Shown: piece after piece, positions 43,878 to 51,164 of the stretch | How positions within the stretch are numbered: position 1 is the first letter of the stretch | How the letters are laid out: each line of letters starts with the position of its first letter | Origin: an uncultured Acidimicrobiia bacterium | GTDB taxonomy: Bacteria > Actinomycetota > Acidimicrobiia > Acidimicrobiales > AC-14 | Reading direction: 5' to 3' | DNA length: 64,000 nt | Assembly (NCBI GenBank): GCA_963836205.1 | Contig: CAWIIV010000006.1 | Coordinates: forward strand, 128,001-192,000 | The notes under the pieces: model-generated | What the model saw: only the letters and a program-made list of their open reading frames with translations | Database searches by the model: none | Told to the model about the DNA's origin: nothing | Program-made: the position numbers and the translations under genes

Positions 43878-44663
43878 TCAGCTTGCCGCGCCCACGGCGC
43901 CCCCCGCCAGCAGGTCGTCGATGCTCCAGCACAGCTCCCGGAACGTCTGGTCCCGCAGCAGCGCCCGCTCCCGGCCCGGCCCGAAGGGGATGGCCAGCTC
44001 GGCCGCCACCTGCCCCGGCCGTGACGACAGCACGTAGACCCGGCTCGACAGGTAGACCGCCTCCTCCACGTCGTGGGTGACCATGAGGATGGTGGCGCCG
44101 GTGTCGGCCTGCACCTGGACCACGAAGTCCCGCATCGACGCCCGCGTCTGCGAGTCCAACGCCCCGAACGGCTCGTCGAAGAGCAGCACCGACGGCTCGG
44201 TGGCCAGGGCCCGGGCGATGGCCACCCGCTGCTGCATCCCGCCCGAGAGCTGCCGGGGCAGGGCGCCGGCAAAGTCCGACAGCCCCATCACCCGCAGGTA
44301 CTCGGTCACCCGGGAGGCGATGTCCGCCCGATCCATGCCCTTGAGCTCCAACCCGAAGCCGACGTTCTCCGCCACCGTCCGCCACGGATACAACGAGTAG
44401 CTCTGGAAGACGAGTCCCCGGTCGGGACCGGGACCGGAGACGTGGCGCCCGTCGACCAGCACCGCCCCCTCGGTGGCCTCGACCAGGCCCGCCGCGATCG
44501 ACAGCAGGGTCGACTTGCCACAGCCCGACGCTCCCACCAGCGTCACCAGCTCGCCCTCCGCCACGTGGAGGTCGACGTCGACCAGGGCCCGCACGATCCT
44601 GCCCTTGGCGTCGACGTAGTCCTTCGTCACCGCGATCATCTGCAACTTCGGAACCGCGGTCAT
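43878..44663 (-). CDS. NitT/TauT-type ABC transporter ATP-binding protein
   Basis: GASGCGKS, LSGGMQQR, DEPFGALD, VTHD. Confidence 0.93.
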   Translation of the reverse strand: MTAVPKLQMIAVTKDYVDAKGRIVRALVDVDLHVAEGELVTLVGASGCGKSTLLSIAAGLVEATEGAVLVDGRHVSGPGPDRGLVFQSYSLYPWRTVAENVGFGLELKGMDRADIASRVTEYLRVMGLSDFAGALPRQLSGGMQQRVAIARALATEPSVLLFDEPFGALDSQTRASMRDFVVQVQADTGATILMVTHDVEEAVYLSSRVYVLSSRPGQVAAELAIPFGPGRERALLRDQTFRELCWSIDDLLAGGAVGAAS

Positions 44664-45568
44664 CGGGCCCACGGCGCCAGCCGGTTGCGAAGGAGGCGGA
44701 ACCCGAGGTCGGTGGCCACGCCGATGAGGCCGATCACGATGAGCACGGCGAAGATGACGTCGGTGTCGAGGAACCTCCCGGCCCGCACGATGCGGTACCC
44801 GAAACCCTCCTGGGCGGCGATGAGCTCGGCCACCACCACCATGTTCCAGGTGGCGGCGATGTTCACCCGCATGGCGTCGATCAGGCCGGGGACGCAGTAG
44901 GGCACGATCACCTTGCGGATGACCTGCCACCGGCCCGCGCCCAGCGTGTACGAGACGTTGATCAGCTCGGCCGGCACCTGGGCGGCCACGTCGGCGCTCA
45001 TGAGGGTGTTGAAGAACACGGTGCCGATCACCAGCAGGGCGATCTTCGACGACTCCCCCAGCCCCAGCCAGATGACGAGCAGGGGGATGAACGCGGGCGC
45101 GGGCATGTAGCGGAGGAAGCCGATCATGGGCTCGAACAGGCCCCGGACCACGGGCCAGGTGCCCATGGCCAGGCCCAACGGCACGGAGATGGCGACCACC
45201 AGGACGAAGCCGATCACGATCCGGGTCAGGGTGGCCCGGGCGTCGGACCACAGCTCGCCGCTCGACGCCAGCCGACCGAAGGCGCGCAGCACCTTCGCCG
45301 GCGACGGCAGGAACGTCGAGTCGACGACGCCGGTGCTGCTCACTGCCGTCCACACGAGGAGCGGAACCAGCACCGAGATGACGGCCAACGGCAGGCGCAG
45401 CCGTTCGGGGACCTGCTCCCGCAGGCGCAGCATCCGGATCCGGGGCCGGCCCGGAGCCAGCACCCGACGCAGCCTCGGGCCCGGTGGCGAGCCGGGGCCG
45501 ACCGGCCCCCCGTCCACCCCCTGCTCGCCGGGCGCGGCCGCGGGCTCGGTCACCCCGATCTCGGTCAC
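44660..45568 (-). CDS. NitT/TauT-type ABC transporter permease
   Basis: FLPSP, RYMPAPAFIPL..W.G.GE, VAELIAA. Confidence 0.92.
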   Translation of the reverse strand: MTEIGVTEPAAAPGEQGVDGGPVGPGSPPGPRLRRVLAPGRPRIRMLRLREQVPERLRLPLAVISVLVPLLVWTAVSSTGVVDSTFLPSPAKVLRAFGRLASSGELWSDARATLTRIVIGFVLVVAISVPLGLAMGTWPVVRGLFEPMIGFLRYMPAPAFIPLLVIWLGLGESSKIALLVIGTVFFNTLMSADVAAQVPAELINVSYTLGAGRWQVIRKVIVPYCVPGLIDAMRVNIAATWNMVVVAELIAAQEGFGYRIVRAGRFLDTDVIFAVLIVIGLIGVATDLGFRLLRNRLAPWAR

Positions 45569-45572
45569 CGGG

Positions 45573-46580
45573 TCAACCGGCGGCCGCCCGGGCGGTCACG
45601 AACGTGGGATCGAGCAGTCCGGCCAGGTCGGGCGCGGTGTCGACCAGCTTGGAGTCGACCAGGAAGGTGGCGATCTGGCGGGCGGCGAAGTCGAGGTGCT
45701 TCTGGTCGTTCCCCGGCGCCAAGGCCTCGACGTTGTCGGCCAGGGTGAAGATGGTGGTGCCGGCGTCGTACTCGCGGTAGGCGGCCACGTCGACCCCCGC
45801 CCGCTTGGCCATGATGGCCACCGCCTCGTCGGCGTTGGCGCCGATGTAGTCGATCGTGTCGAACCAGGCGTCGACCAGCTTCTGGACGTCGCCCGGTCTC
45901 GCCTGCACGAACGCGGCATCCATCACCAGGTGGTCGGGAATGGCGCCCGGGAAGTCGGCCGAGCTGAACAACACCTTCGACCCCTGCCGCTCCCGAGCGA
46001 CGTCGGTGAAGGGGGCGAAGGCGCCCACCGCGTCGAGCCGGCCGGAGGCGAAGGCGGCCGCGGCGGCGTCGGTGAGGAGGGGCTGGAGGTCGACGTCGGC
46101 CGGCGTCATCCCCGCCCGCTGGAGCCCGAGCAGGAGGAGGTAGTGGTCGACGGTGCCCTCCTCGACCCCCACCTTCTTGCCCCGGAGGTCCGCCACCGAC
46201 GCGATCTCGGCCGCGGCGATGATCTGGTCGTTGCCGGTGGAGTTGTCGTTGACCAGCACGATCGACTGCTTCGACCCGCCCGACACCGACGAGATGGTGT
46301 CGTTGAGGGTCTGGCTGTTCCCGTCGATGTTCCCGGTGGCCAGGGCGTTGAGGGAGTCGGTGTAGCTCTCGAAGTAGGTGAGATCGACGTCGAGCCCGTG
46401 CCTGGCGAAGATCCCCTTCTCCTCCGCCACCTGCCACGGGAACCACCCCGGCCAGGCGCTGAAGCCGAGGGAGACCTTGCTCAGCCCGGGTGTCGACGAC
46501 GAGTCGTCGTCGCTGCCACCGCAGGCGGCCAGCCCCACCAGGCCGATCACGACCACCGCCGCTGCCAGACGTCTACGCAT
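45573..46580 (-). CDS. ABC substrate-binding lipoprotein, probable guanidine-binding
   Basis: Lipobox LAAC; SAWPGW, QTLNDT, DNSTGND; under a guanidine riboswitch. Confidence 0.85.
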   Translation of the reverse strand: MRRRLAAAVVVIGLVGLAACGGSDDDSSSTPGLSKVSLGFSAWPGWFPWQVAEEKGIFARHGLDVDLTYFESYTDSLNALATGNIDGNSQTLNDTISSVSGGSKQSIVLVNDNSTGNDQIIAAAEIASVADLRGKKVGVEEGTVDHYLLLLGLQRAGMTPADVDLQPLLTDAAAAAFASGRLDAVGAFAPFTDVARERQGSKVLFSSADFPGAIPDHLVMDAAFVQARPGDVQKLVDAWFDTIDYIGANADEAVAIMAKRAGVDVAAYREYDAGTTIFTLADNVEALAPGNDQKHLDFAARQIATFLVDSKLVDTAPDLAGLLDPTFVTARAAAG

Positions 46581-47700
46581 CGCTCGACTCCTTCTTGGGT
46601 CGCGGCAGGTGGCCGTGGTTGACGAGGGTCCCCAGGACGTCGCAGATCACCCGGGTCCCGAGGAGCGACGTGATCTCGGCGCTGTCGTACGGCGGCGAGC
46701 ACTCCACGATCTCGATCCCGGCCAGGCCCCGGGCCGCGACCCCCTTGACCAGCTTCAATGCCTCCCGGGGCAGGAAGCCGCCCGGCTCCGGCCAGCCCGT
46801 CCCGGGGACGAAGGCGGCGTCGAGGCAGTCGACGTCGAACGACAGCCACACCGCCTCGGCCCCGTCCCACGCCACCTCGAGGGCGTGCTCGATGGCGGCG
46901 TCGAGGCCCATGTCGACGCAGTCGTTGACGGTCATGATCGTCGTCTCCCGCTCCCGGCAGACCTTGACCCCGGGTCGGGGCGCCTGCCACCCGCCGATGC
47001 CTATCTGGACCAGGTTCTTGGCCGGGACGTTGGGGATGTCGGTGGCGTGGAACCAGGGGGTGGTGTGCATCCGTTCGTCGAGGTCGGTCTCCTGGGTGTC
47101 GACGTGGCGGTCGAAGTGGATGATCCCCAGGTTGCCGCCGCCCAGGTGAGGAGCCACCGCCCGCACCGTGGGGTAGCCGATGGAGTGGTCGCCGCCGAGC
47201 ACCACCGGGAAGGCCCCGCTGGCGTAGACGTGGGACACCGCCTTGGTGATCTGGTCGAACGACTTCTCGATGTTGCCGGGGATGGTGAAGATGTCGCCCA
47301 GGTCGCACATGGTGATCGACTCCCGCAGGTCGACCCCCAGCTCGAAGGAGTACGGGCCGTAGAGGGTGGAGATCGCCCGCATCCCGCGGGGGCCGAAGCG
47401 GGTGCCGGGCCGGTAGGTGGTGCCCGAGTCGTGGGGGGCGCCCACGACGGCCACGTCGTACCGGCCGCACGTGCGCACGTCCTCGACGTAGGGCGCCTTG
47501 AGGAACGTGGTGATGCCGGCGTAGTGGGGCAGCTCGCCCCGGCTGAAGGTGGGGATGGTCTTGTCGACGATGGAGTCGGCGCCCGGCAGGCCCATCTCCA
47601 GGCCCCGGGCGATCTCCCGGCGCCACCCGTCGAGGGGGATGAGGACCTCCGCCTCCAGCGCCCGCCTCGCTTCGGGCCCGTGCCGGTCGTGAACTGCCAC
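46573..47700 (-). CDS. gdmH: Ureohydrolase (arginase/agmatinase family), probable guanidine hydrolase
   Basis: IPTFSRGELPHYAG.TFLKAPY N-terminal extension as recalled for GdmH; GGDHS, DRHVD, SFDVD..D, PGTGWPEPGG; AGAGGAG RBS. Confidence 0.82.
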   Translation of the reverse strand: MAVHDRHGPEARRALEAEVLIPLDGWRREIARGLEMGLPGADSIVDKTIPTFSRGELPHYAGITTFLKAPYVEDVRTCGRYDVAVVGAPHDSGTTYRPGTRFGPRGMRAISTLYGPYSFELGVDLRESITMCDLGDIFTIPGNIEKSFDQITKAVSHVYASGAFPVVLGGDHSIGYPTVRAVAPHLGGGNLGIIHFDRHVDTQETDLDERMHTTPWFHATDIPNVPAKNLVQIGIGGWQAPRPGVKVCRERETTIMTVNDCVDMGLDAAIEHALEVAWDGAEAVWLSFDVDCLDAAFVPGTGWPEPGGFLPREALKLVKGVAARGLAGIEIVECSPPYDSAEITSLLGTRVICDVLGTLVNHGHLPRPKKESSDA

Positions 47701-47737
47701 CTGTCGGCTGCTCCTCTCTGGTGACCGACCCGGCGAA

Positions 47738-47779
47738 CGAGAAAGCCCGGGACGATCGATGTCGATCTCCCGGGCTTTT
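47738..47779 (-). terminator. Riboswitch expression-platform hairpin
   Basis: AAAGCCCGGGA...UCCCGGGCUUUCUC sequesters the 3' tail of the aptamer. Confidence 0.7.
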
Positions 47780-47860
47780 GTCCCTCCGTGTGACGAGTCG
47801 CAGCTCGCCTGCACCTCTCGGACCAGACCCCCCACGAGTGGGGGCGGAACCCTAGGTGCC
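47767..47860 (-). ncRNA. Guanidine-I (ykkC/yxkD) riboswitch
   Basis: CUAGGGUUCCG...CUGGUCCGAGAG...ACACGGAGGGACAAAAGCCCGGGAG matches the ykkC subtype-1 consensus. Confidence 0.93.
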
Positions 47861-47958: not shown

Positions 47959-48010
47959 GCGGCGGAGCATCCGCGGTTGGCGGCGGGCGGCTACGTAGCG
48001 TTTGCGACGC

Positions 48011-48799
48011 GTGCGGCCCGTCCTCTTTCACGCCGGCTCCTACGGGGTGCCGACCCACGCCTTCTTCGTCGCCCTCGGGCTGCTGGCCGCGGGCATGGTG
48101 TTCGTGGTGGAGGCCCGGCGGCGGGGTCGGCTGGACGAGGCCATGGGGTGGATCGTGGCCGGCACCCTCCTCGGCGGCGCGATCGGCGCCCGCCTGAGCA
48201 CGCTGTGGGGCTACGTCGACGACGCCGCCGACCCGAGCCTCGTCGGCGCGGCCCTCGACGGCGGCAAGAGCATCCTGGGCGGGCTGTCCGGCGCCTATGT
48301 CGGAGCCCTCGTCACCAAGCGCATCCTGGGCTACCGCCGGTCCACCGGCGACCTGTTCGTGCCCGCGGTGGCCCTGGGCATGGCCGTGGGCCGGGTGGGC
48401 TGCTTCCTCACCGAGCAGGTCGGCACGCCCACGTCGATGCCGTGGGGCATCCACCTGAGCCCGGAGGCGGCGGCCCGCATCCCCCACTGCCCGTGGTGCG
48501 CGTCGGGCGTCGCCATGCACCCGTCGATGCTCTACGAGATCGCCTTCCACGCGGTCGCCTTCGTGGTGGTCCTCCGCCTCCGGGGCCGCCTGCGGACGGA
48601 AGGCGACGTGTTCAAGCTCTACCTGCTCGGCTACGCCCTCTTCCGCTTCTGGGTCGAGTTCGTGCGGGGCGGCGACCAGGTGCTGGCCGGTCTCACCCGG
48701 CCCCAGCTCTTCCTCGTCCCGTCAGGCCTGGTGCTGGCCGCCTACTTCGCCCGCCGGGTGACGCGGCCGGCCCCGGTGTCCGTGGCGGCGGACCGATGA
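48011..48799 (+). CDS. Lgt-family (prolipoprotein diacylglyceryl transferase-like) membrane protein
   Basis: GGKSILGG, GRVGCFL, HPSMLYE, RFWVEFVR. Confidence 0.85.
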   Translation: MRPVLFHAGSYGVPTHAFFVALGLLAAGMVFVVEARRRGRLDEAMGWIVAGTLLGGAIGARLSTLWGYVDDAADPSLVGAALDGGKSILGGLSGAYVGALVTKRILGYRRSTGDLFVPAVALGMAVGRVGCFLTEQVGTPTSMPWGIHLSPEAAARIPHCPWCASGVAMHPSMLYEIAFHAVAFVVVLRLRGRLRTEGDVFKLYLLGYALFRFWVEFVRGGDQVLAGLTRPQLFLVPSGLVLAAYFARRVTRPAPVSVAADR

Positions 48800-48854
48800 G
48801 CCCCGATTGATGAGCCCCGATTGATGAGCCCCGATTGATGAGCCCCGATTGATG
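48796..48854 (+). repeat. 4x 14-bp tandem repeat ATGAGCCCCGATTG, each a mini-ORF MSPD*
   Basis: ATGs at 48796, 48810, 48824, 48838 and 48852; each TGA overlaps the next ATG. Confidence 0.95.
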
Positions 48855-49079
48855 GACACCGTCCTGGCCGTCCTCCTTCTCGTCGGCCTGGCCCTCCTCC
48901 TGGCGTCGGCGGGCGGCGTGGCGCTGGCCAGCATCGTGAGGGCCCGTCACCGGAACCTGCCTCCCGACGAGGTGCAGCGCAAGGCGGCGGCCGCCTTCTG
49001 GATCGGGTCGATCGTGGGACTTGCCCTGGAGCTGGTCCTGTTCGGGATGTGTGTCTCGATGTTGAACCAGATGGGTTAG
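48852..49079 (+). CDS. Small 2-TM protein with C-terminal ELVLFGMC motif
   Basis: 75 aa, coupled to the last mini-ORF; paralogue of the next ORF. Confidence 0.7.
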   Translation: MDTVLAVLLLVGLALLLASAGGVALASIVRARHRNLPPDEVQRKAAAAFWIGSIVGLALELVLFGMCVSMLNQMG

Positions 49080-49082
49080 CGG

Positions 49083-49286
49083 ATGGACATCGTCAACGCC
49101 ATCCTCGGGCTGACCCTGCTCTTCGCGGCGCCGGCCACGATCATCGGCGGCATCGCCGCCATCATCGCCCTCGCGTCCGGCCACCGGGCCGTGCGGGCCT
49201 TCTGGATTGCCTTCGTCATCGTCGTCGCCATCGAGCTCATCCTCTTCGGGATCTGTCTCGCCGCCTTCCGGGACTTCGGCGGCTGA
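49083..49286 (+). CDS. Small 2-TM protein with C-terminal ELILFGIC motif
   Basis: 67 aa; TGATG overlap with the radical SAM gene. Confidence 0.72.
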   Translation: MDIVNAILGLTLLFAAPATIIGGIAAIIALASGHRAVRAFWIAFVIVVAIELILFGICLAAFRDFGG

Positions 49287-50884
49287 TGCGGGGCATGCCC
49301 CTGCGGGGTGACCGCATCCTGCGCTACGTCACCGCCTTCTGCCCCACCTGCCACGCGGAACGACCCGACCGACCCCTCGCCGAGGTGGCCCGCCTCGGCG
49401 GCTACCTCTCGGAGGCCGACGGGCGGGTGTGGCTGGTCCGGGGCTGCCCGACCCACGGGCGCATCGTCACCCTCTACGACGAGTCGCCCGAGATCCTGGC
49501 CTACCTCGAGCAGTGGACGGCGCCCACCAAGGCCCACCGCCCCGACACCCCGGGCAACTTCGACCCCATCCCGTCCGCCTACCTCCGGGGTCTCGGCGAG
49601 CTCCAGACCCAGCACACGTGCACCCTGCTGGAGGACATCGCCGAGAAGTGCAACCTGCGCTGCCCCACCTGCTTCACCGACTCCGGGCCCGAGCGGGCCG
49701 GTCTCGTACCCATCCACGACGTGGTGGCGAACGTCGACCAGCGCCTGGCCCGGGAGAACGGCGCCCTCGACGTGGTCATGGTGAGCGGCGGCGAGCCCAC
49801 AGTCCACCCGGACCTGGTCGAGATCCTCGACCGCATCCTCGAGCGGGACGTCACCCGGATCCTGGTCAACACCAACGGCATGCGCCTGGCCCACGACGAC
49901 GCGCTGCTGGCCGCCCTGGCCGAGCGCCGCGACCGGGTCGAGGTCTACCTCCAGTTCGACGGGTTCCGGGCCGCCACCCACCGCCATCACCGGGGAGCCG
50001 ACGTGGGAGCCGTCAAGCGGAAGGTGGTCGAGCGGCTGCGCGACGCCGAGATCTTCATGACCCTCACCATGACCGCCGCCCTGGGCGTCAACGACGACGA
50101 GATCGGCGACGTGGTCAACTTCGGCCTCGACACCCCCTACGTGGGCGGGGTCAGCATCCAGCCCCAGTTCGGGTCGGGCCGGTCGGGCGCCATCGACCCC
50201 CTCGACCGCCTCACCCACACCGGCGTGCTGGCGCGCCTCGGCCCTCAGACCGGCGGCCGCTTCGGCTGGCGGGACATGACCGCCCTGCCCTGCTCCCACC
50301 CCCATTGCTGCAGCATCGGCTACGCCATCCGCACCGACGCCGGCGAGTGGAAGTCGCTGGTGGGCATGATCGGCCACGAGGAGCTCAAGGCGAACCTCGA
50401 CCTGGTCAGCAACCGGATCGCCGACCGGGAGCTGCCCGCCCGCCTGCGCCGACTGCTGAAGGACTCGCTCCTGGGCCTACTCAGCGACCAGGCGTCGCTC
50501 ACCCATCCGAGCGTGCCCCAGCTGCTCCGCAACGTGTGCGACCACTGCGACCTGGGCGTGCGCACGCTCGCCCGCATCACCACCCGCCCCGGGGCCGAAG
50601 GCCGCCGCCGCATCCGGGACCTGCTGGCCCACCGGGTGAAGCGCATCGTGGTGAAGCCGTTCATGGACCTCGACACCATGATCGAGGAGCGGCTCCAGCA
50701 GTGCTGCGTGCACGTCGGGTCCCGGGGCGCCGACCACAACGGCGACGGTGGCGGCCACCAGTGCGCCCCCTTCTGCGCCATGCAGGCGTGGCCCGCCCTG
50801 GGCGCCACCCGCCTATCGGCGACGGCGACCGCCGAGTCCGCTGCCGCCGAGGACCAGCCGGTCACGCTCGGCCGCCGTGGCTGA
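49286..50884 (+). CDS. Radical SAM enzyme, tetraether synthase (Tes/GDGT-MAS/MJ0619)-like family
   Basis: N-terminal CPTC...CPTHG, CNLRCPTCF, GGEPT, VYLQFDG, PCSHPHC, CCVH...PFC. Confidence 0.85.
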   Translation: MRGMPLRGDRILRYVTAFCPTCHAERPDRPLAEVARLGGYLSEADGRVWLVRGCPTHGRIVTLYDESPEILAYLEQWTAPTKAHRPDTPGNFDPIPSAYLRGLGELQTQHTCTLLEDIAEKCNLRCPTCFTDSGPERAGLVPIHDVVANVDQRLARENGALDVVMVSGGEPTVHPDLVEILDRILERDVTRILVNTNGMRLAHDDALLAALAERRDRVEVYLQFDGFRAATHRHHRGADVGAVKRKVVERLRDAEIFMTLTMTAALGVNDDEIGDVVNFGLDTPYVGGVSIQPQFGSGRSGAIDPLDRLTHTGVLARLGPQTGGRFGWRDMTALPCSHPHCCSIGYAIRTDAGEWKSLVGMIGHEELKANLDLVSNRIADRELPARLRRLLKDSLLGLLSDQASLTHPSVPQLLRNVCDHCDLGVRTLARITTRPGAEGRRRIRDLLAHRVKRIVVKPFMDLDTMIEERLQQCCVHVGSRGADHNGDGGGHQCAPFCAMQAWPALGATRLSATATAESAAAEDQPVTLGRRG

Positions 50885-51164
50885 CCCCCGCATCCCGGCC
50901 GCCCTCCGGGGAGCGTCGGAGCCTTCGGAGTCGCCGTCCGACCCGCTCCACTGGTGCGTGTTCACCACCGTCAGCCTGCTGACGTGGGCCCTGGGCCCGG
51001 CCGTGCTCGTCGTCTTCTCGACGGCCGGTCTGGTGGCCTACTCACGATCCTTCGCCCGTGGCCGGCGCCGCAGCCGCTGCCTGCTGCGCGACACCCGCCT
51101 GGTGGTGGCCTACCTGGCCGTCACCCTCGCCTTGGGCGTCGTCGCCACCGTCCGCGGCCTGTAA
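50877..51164 (+). CDS. Small membrane hypothetical protein
   Basis: GTG overlaps the rSAM end; DPLHWCVFTTV...SRCLLRDTRLV with about 3 hydrophobic segments. Confidence 0.65.
   Translation: MADPRIPAALRGASEPSESPSDPLHWCVFTTVSLLTWALGPAVLVVFSTAGLVAYSRSFARGRRRSRCLLRDTRLVVAYLAVTLALGVVATVRGL

Follow-up and report, generated by a model that had tools for sequence, protein, structure and literature searches.

The locus analysed here raises the question of why an Lgt paralogue, a Tes-like radical SAM enzyme and two very small cysteine-tailed peptides are encoded side by side. In the window (the whole 64,000-nucleotide stretch of Acidimicrobiia DNA that we analysed), a translationally coupled operon on the plus strand encodes an Lgt paralogue of 265 aa (48002..48799; PF01790), the two-helix membrane peptide pep1 (75 aa; 48852..49079) and its paralogue pep2 (67 aa; 49083..49286), a Tes/GDGT-MAS-like radical SAM enzyme of 532 aa with an N-terminal zinc ribbon (49286..50884) and a second small two-helix membrane protein of 95 aa (50877..51164). 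The Lgt-like gene is called from a TTG at 48002, and its orthologues point to a GTG at 48011 as the possible true start. Three bases separate pep1 from pep2, the ATG of the radical SAM gene overlaps the pep2 stop codon by one base, and the GTG start of the second small protein gene gives an 8-base overlap with the end of the radical SAM gene. The junction between the Lgt-like stop codon and the pep1 start is occupied by a 60-base tandem repeat on the plus strand (48795..48854; 4.3 copies of a 14-nt unit, 100% matches in Tandem Repeats Finder). Each unit amounts to a mini-ORF of four codons, with a one-base overlap between its stop and the following ATG, and the four mini-ORFs form a frame-rotating stop-start relay from the Lgt-like gene into pep1. 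Relatives in the genus are without this repeat, and their Lgt-like stop and peptide start overlap directly, once. Scans around the operon found no promoter or terminator, and a search of sequencing runs matched no RNA run, with DNA runs sharing at most 0.15 of words. Divergent from the cassette, on the minus strand, lie arginase-family and NMT1-type ABC transporter genes (44660-47835) preceded by a Guanidine-I riboswitch (RF00442; 47765-47866, minus strand; 89.9 bits, E = 5e-16), an arrangement that looks like a guanidine-responsive nitrogen-scavenging operon. An unrelated ABC transporter starts downstream of the cassette.

The first-pass annotation had described two paralogous small peptides at 48852..49286, each with a basic loop, then a hydrophobic stretch, then its one cysteine and a tail of 8-9 residues. 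This description agrees with the sequence. Both ORFs are present, their products align by BLASTP over the second helix and tail with 13 of 33 identities (39%; E = 2e-9), and the sole cysteine is residue 67 of 75 in pep1 and 58 of 67 in pep2. It closes the local motifs F-G-M-C (G-x-C at residues 65-67, 8-residue tail) and F-G-I-C (residues 56-58, 9-residue tail), respectively. In this GC-rich genome, GC3 is 0.91 for pep1 and 0.97 for pep2 against GC2 of 0.43 and 0.45, values that mark both frames as coding. Neither peptide matched a family in Pfam or NCBIfam, and a weak match of pep2 to DUF7190 (E = 0.04) was dropped. Word-index homologue searches returned each peptide itself plus one and two close relatives, respectively, and the ESM Atlas held no usable match for pep2 or for the second small protein.

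Conservation of the cysteine held up: it is kept in 12 of 12 genus-level homologues and in all 17 sequences of a set that includes 15 profile-search matches from 1.84 billion representatives. The 12 genus-level peptides have only M1, F49, A58, E60, G65 and C67 in common, and adding the 15 profile matches leaves G65 and C67 as the sole invariants (17/17). Of the shared ELxLFGxC that had been proposed, the G-x-C is therefore universal, but the glutamate, invariant in the 12 close homologues, is replaced in 4 of the 17. Since so large a search gave so few matches, sequence searches cannot trace the wider family; gene context did. For the same genome pairs, dN/dS was 0.64-1.10 for the peptides, despite their five invariant positions, 0.18-0.23 for the Lgt-like enzyme and 0.12-0.18 for the radical SAM enzyme, ratios that are rough because extreme GC3 compresses dS. 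Strains of the genus carry one or two peptides each. In this genome the peptide profiles have two matches, both inside the cassette. Profile searches of five other genomes gave one in-cassette match in each of four mycobacterial genomes and none in that of Dactylosporangium vinaceum, where the cassette has a different type of peptide.

The peptides had been expected to travel with the Lgt-like/Tes pair, and they do. Among 41 related genomes, all three parts occur in the same six (G000, G001 and G004-G007), with every peptide match inside the cassette, and none of the three was found in the other 35, by thresholds of at least 88% identity for the radical SAM enzyme, E ≤ 1e-30 for the Lgt-like enzyme and E ≤ 1e-3 for the peptide profile. 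Two genomes of the same genus (G002 and G003; 95% and 90% complete) are among those with none of the parts. In a scan of 401 genomes of the phylum, Lgt-like and radical SAM orthologues were found in the same seven, at 47-58% and 61-70% identity, respectively. Across these two genome sets, G008, G021 and G159 count as genomes without the cassette, each with only a 33-38% identical radical SAM paralogue. These data support a specific tie between the peptides and the Lgt-like/Tes-like pair. In G007 the cassette appears on two contigs, at the end of C126 and the start of C92, with near-identical peptide copies, and this double occurrence is probably an assembly break or duplicate, not two cassettes.

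A scan of 185,579 species genomes recovered at least 562 related loci. The best 80 of these come from Acidimicrobiia, Mycobacterium/Mycolicibacterium (many Mycolicibacterium species among them), Nocardia, Dactylosporangium, Microbispora, Nocardioides and others, and also from Chloroflexota, Thermoanaerobaculia and Gemmatimonadaceae. For 74 of the 80, the upstream DNA has an Lgt-like gene in the same orientation, and the other six have less than 900 bases of upstream DNA. We searched these 80 loci for proteins in which 20 mostly hydrophobic residues lead up to a cysteine with a tail of 3-17 residues, a filter that does not require glycine. Candidates were found on the cassette strand in 77 of the 80 loci, compared with 3 of 80 in the opposite-strand control; no Cys-tailed protein was found in the available DNA of L069, L086 and L087. 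Under a stricter filter that requires glycine at -2, 59 Cys-tailed proteins are encoded between the enzymes, 10 before the Lgt-like gene and 9 after the radical SAM gene, and 5 more candidates precede the radical SAM gene in loci that do not extend far enough to show an Lgt-like gene. Each cassette has one or two such partners. The absence of Pfam and NCBIfam families and the very few sequence homologues would suit ordinary small membrane proteins caught between the enzymes by chance, or ORFs that are not genes at all. We consider this explanation barely credible, and it is already contradicted by the in-frame GC3 of 0.91-0.99, the invariant G-x-C, the exact co-occurrence with the enzymes and the excess over the control loci.

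The 82 distinct candidates from the looser filter define the shared signal. Glycine is at -2 in 81 of them, a median of 20 uncharged residues precedes the cysteine, the 12 residues before that stretch contain on average 2.5 K/R, and the tail, with a median length of 10 residues, averages 0.2 K/R. The N-terminal part varies freely, from a first helix or hairpin to a DUF2510 domain or a long Pro-rich region, and the C-terminal signal alone is kept. Pfam searches with 32 cassette-linked Cys-tailed proteins gave nothing above cut-off except the N-terminal DUF2510 in one. By the positive-inside rule, basic patches are cytoplasmic. The patch is thus predicted to be cytoplasmic and the cysteine to lie near the outer end of the helix, a sidedness that rests on that rule only. 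In Lgt substrates, too, the cysteine follows the h-region at the outer face, where Lgt acts. The signal-peptide-like layout (basic patch, about 20 uncharged residues, cysteine) is thus present and should place the cysteine at the outer membrane face. The description of the motif as lipobox-like in the first-pass annotation fits loosely: none of the 82 candidates has a canonical lipobox, glycine occupies -2, and -1 is Met in pep1 and Ile in pep2, with a small residue (A, G or S) there in only 15 of the 82. In proteins of the Mycobacterium/Nocardia/Microbispora group, the C-terminal 48 residues are strongly conserved, with 12 invariant positions in 26 sequences, including a Gly-repeat helix, and this module resembles a packed helix more than it does a bare signal.

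The Lgt paralogue matches PF01790 with E = 1e-35 (123.7 bits against a cut-off of 24.9) and scores 87.8 bits with TIGR00544, the NCBIfam Lgt equivalog, below the cut-off of 118.9. The genome carries three LGT-family genes, of which the cassette copy is the third and weakest-scoring, and the two better-scoring Lgt genes are available for housekeeping. It also matches E. coli Lgt (5AZB; E = 3e-12). Measured against the 13-residue Lgt motif set out in the available text of 10.1101/2025.03.27.645668, nine residues are kept (G104, G142, R143, G145, G154, Y235, R239, E243 and R246). The full motif is not present: Y26 is replaced by His, H103 by Leu and N146 by Cys, and the Glu equivalent to E151 sits one residue away, with Gln at the aligned position. 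The Leu at H103 and the E151 displacement describe the window protein; the His at Y26 and the Cys at N146 are invariant in the clade, in 29 of 29 orthologues of an alignment from which row L098, whose reference has an internal stop, was left out. These four changes raise the possibility that the Lgt-like enzyme does different chemistry.

The radical SAM protein matches PF23545 (E = 1e-9) and PF04055 (E = 3e-21), and its zinc ribbon is of the Tes/HMPTM type. NCBIfam places it near TrsS (195 bits) and Tes (146.3 bits), both far below their cut-offs (450 for Tes, NF045702), and its closest solved relative is GDGT-MAS (PDB 7TOL; E = 5e-26). The CxxxCxxC motif is invariant in seven of seven orthologues. 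TrsS gave no functional lead; in the available text of PMC13188914 it occurs solely in a selenoprotein table. A second Tes-like radical SAM family, 33-39% identical, is represented by L010-L016, L019, L026-L038 (other Actinomycetota), and by G002 and G006 of this genus. In the 1.5-kb flanks of eight of these loci (L010-L016 and L019) no Lgt-like gene was found, so not every bacterial Tes homologue belongs to the cassette. A homologue of the second small protein, which has no Pfam family, lies 3' of the radical SAM gene in 57 of the 80 loci, and two cysteines and a basic loop motif are conserved in it. It is the best-conserved small component of the cassette, far above the Cys-tailed peptides.

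A metagenomic protein of 775 aa (P0021) is a natural single-chain fusion of an Lgt-like domain, a zinc ribbon and a radical SAM domain. It indicates that the two enzymes are physically tied, with the radical SAM domain on the same side as the C-terminus of Lgt. In E. coli Lgt, the C-terminus is cytoplasmic. P0022 consists of an Lgt-like domain behind a periplasmic propeller, and two longer Lgt-like relatives (P0023 and P0024) were set aside as apparently frameshifted gene calls.

Small, fast-evolving peptides adjoining a radical SAM enzyme, in numbers that differ between strains, recall RiPP precursors, and the first-pass annotation had envisaged cleavage before the cysteine with release of a short lipopeptide. 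We regard RiPP-like precursors that are lipidated and then cleaved in this way as very improbable. Each of the 22 diverse loci scanned has different flanking genes, with no peptidase or exporter recurring among them. LspA requires a small residue at -1; the -1 residues here are bulky, and the single LspA gene of this genome is on another contig, unlinked to the cassette. The radical SAM enzyme belongs to the lipid-acting Tes type and has no SPASM or recognition-domain match among its Pfam results, and the peptides are membrane hairpins without the leader-core organisation of such precursors. The only recurrent neighbour in the same 22 loci is a divergent ICMT/PEMT-family methyltransferase gene, beside the cassette in two of them (L047:2402-2935 and L055:2123-2653, both minus strand), and an ORF upstream in L023 is ICMT-like by eye. 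Such a neighbour recalls the eukaryotic carboxyl methylation of lipidated C-terminal cysteines.

We favour a model in which the cysteine is lipidated and the protein stays whole. Because the peptides belong to the Lgt-like/Tes-like cassette, they are probably its dedicated lipidation targets. In full, pep1 and pep2 would be dedicated, non-canonical clients: the Lgt paralogue would lipidate their cysteine at the outer face and the radical SAM enzyme would remodel the lipid, a proposal drawn from sequence and gene context whose chances we judge to be evenly balanced. The peptides would insert as hairpins, with the basic loop in the cytoplasm and the G-x-C cysteine near the outer end of helix 2. 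The Lgt paralogue, with its lipid-binding arginines kept and its active site apparently remodelled, would move a glycerolipid moiety onto the cysteine thiol as a thioether, as Lgt does on the lipobox cysteine. The Tes-like enzyme, sometimes fused to the Lgt-like C-terminus, would act from the cytoplasmic face and modify the lipid, most plausibly at the terminus of an acyl tail. This would yield a small membrane protein that stays uncleaved and carries its lipid near the C-terminus. From gene linkage, co-occurrence, motif invariance, layout and the retained catalytic residues, we infer the lipidation itself, the identity of the lipid, the sidedness, the order of steps and the roles of the radical SAM enzyme and the second small protein. 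Against this reading, the motif is C-terminal, not part of an N-terminal signal peptide, and it is not a lipobox.

The Cys-tailed peptides could instead belong permanently, as small subunits or in the manner of a cofactor, to a membrane complex of the Lgt-like and radical SAM enzymes whose substrates are free membrane lipids, which it might for example convert into membrane-spanning lipids. The cysteine would then take part in catalysis, carry lipid transiently or help the helices pack, and would not be where the end-product lipid is attached. We hold this explanation to be possible, though short of probable. The restriction of profile matches to in-cassette copies, the conserved mycobacterial module and the altered active site of the Lgt-like enzyme make a subunit or carrier role a serious rival. 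Such matches argue against a sorting signal with many clients, and a one-to-one partner fits a subunit equally well. The strong conservation of the Gly-rich mycobacterial-type helix and the enzyme fusion, which suggests a complex, point the same way, and in its available text PMC8941075 treats bacterial Tes homologues as candidate synthases of membrane-spanning lipids, proposing 456 of them as branched-tetraether synthases. However, the partner is free to differ in copy number, position and N-terminal architecture, in this genus the peptides evolve almost neutrally while the enzymes are constrained, and the arrangement of n-region, h-region and cysteine copies that of an Lgt substrate.

The client model also admits a more extreme product. 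The cassette might build a protein-anchored membrane-spanning lipid, a covalent protein-lipid staple across the membrane, although we think this unlikely. The Lgt paralogue would add diacylglyceryl to the peptide cysteine in the outer leaflet, the Tes-like enzyme would reach the bilayer midplane from the cytoplasmic side, and the end of one acyl tail of the cysteine-bound lipid would be welded to the tail of an inner-leaflet lipid. To our knowledge, a post-translational modification of this kind is not known from any organism.

The cassette of Lgt-like enzyme, Tes-like enzyme and Cys-tailed peptide is widespread and apparently undescribed: a search of the full-text literature, with subscription-only papers and bioRxiv supplements outside its range, found no description of the gene set, and the words Lgt and lipoprotein do not occur in the available text of the Tes-mechanism review PMC13459092. 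If the peptides are clients, a second protein-lipidation route would exist in bacteria of several phyla, among them many mycobacteria, Nocardia and soil actinomycetes. It would use a C-terminal G-x-C signal of its own, and a radical enzyme would rework the attached lipid. 'Spare' Lgt homologues would acquire a function, and the palaeoclimate use of bacterial Tes homologues as markers of branched-tetraether producers would need rereading. If the lipid is indeed stapled across the membrane, many 'bacterial Tes homologues' would not be synthases of free tetraether lipids. Prediction of lipidated small proteins would also gain a rule; current lipoprotein predictors are blind to such proteins because the G-x-C is not a lipobox.

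How does the cassette compare with known systems? Short C-terminal motifs processed by dedicated enzymes are familiar from sortase (LPXTG), exosortase (PEP-CTERM), archaeosortase (PGF-CTERM) and CaaX/ICMT pathways, and the cassette likewise combines a conserved motif by a C-terminal membrane helix with a neighbouring enzyme. LPXTG, PEP-CTERM and PGF-CTERM signals run from motif to hydrophobic helix to basic tail and have many clients per genome. The cassette order is the reverse (basic patch, helix, motif, uncharged tail), the peptide profiles match only copies inside the cassette, which has one client in place of many, and no transpeptidase is linked to it. The likeness to CaaX/ICMT extends to the ICMT-family gene beside the cassette in 2 of 22 loci, which is absent from this window. 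Of the hallmarks of RiPP systems with a radical SAM maturase, no SPASM or recognition domain appeared among the Pfam matches of the cassette enzyme, and no protease or exporter recurred in the 22 loci.

Canonical Lgt substrates carry their signal at the N-terminus, and the cysteine becomes the first residue of the mature protein; here the n-region, h-region and cysteine are C-terminal and follow a first helix. Neither F-G-M-C of pep1 nor F-G-I-C of pep2 fits the lipobox consensus [LVI][ASTVI][GAS]C (as given in the available text of PMC12462473), and the peptides share with such substrates the invariant cysteine (12/12 and 17/17). With Tes/GDGT-MAS (MJ0619; 7TOL/7TOM; NF045702), which according to the available text of PMC13459092 joins the termini of lipid tails by a cluster-dependent radical mechanism, the cassette enzyme has in common a zinc ribbon, a radical SAM core and a C-terminal Cys-rich region. 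In contrast to Tes, it is bacterial, always lies beside an Lgt paralogue and a Cys-tailed protein, and is not an equivalog.

The resemblance to lipoprotein maturation (E. coli Lgt; 5AZB/5AZC; PF01790) lies in the enzyme and in its neighbours: an Lgt-family protein that retains the arginines and acidic residues of its motif is encoded next to proteins in which a basic patch and a hydrophobic stretch lead up to a single invariant cysteine. The cassette differs in having no linked LspA or Lnt and in the obligate pairing of its Lgt-like enzyme with a radical SAM enzyme. A relative may already be known from Mycolicibacterium smegmatis. Its second Lgt homologue, MSMEG_5408, is treated as a weak or redundant Lgt in the available texts of 10.1101/2025.03.27.645668 and 10.1101/2025.01.07.631728, the latter of which speculates that it prefers another lipid; neither text, as available, mentions a radical SAM partner or a peptide. 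MSMEG_5408 is reported to carry Y26H and N146C (10.1101/2025.03.27.645668, available text), the two substitutions that are invariant in the cassette clade (29/29), and these reported substitutions suggest that it belongs to the same clade as the cassette Lgt paralogue.
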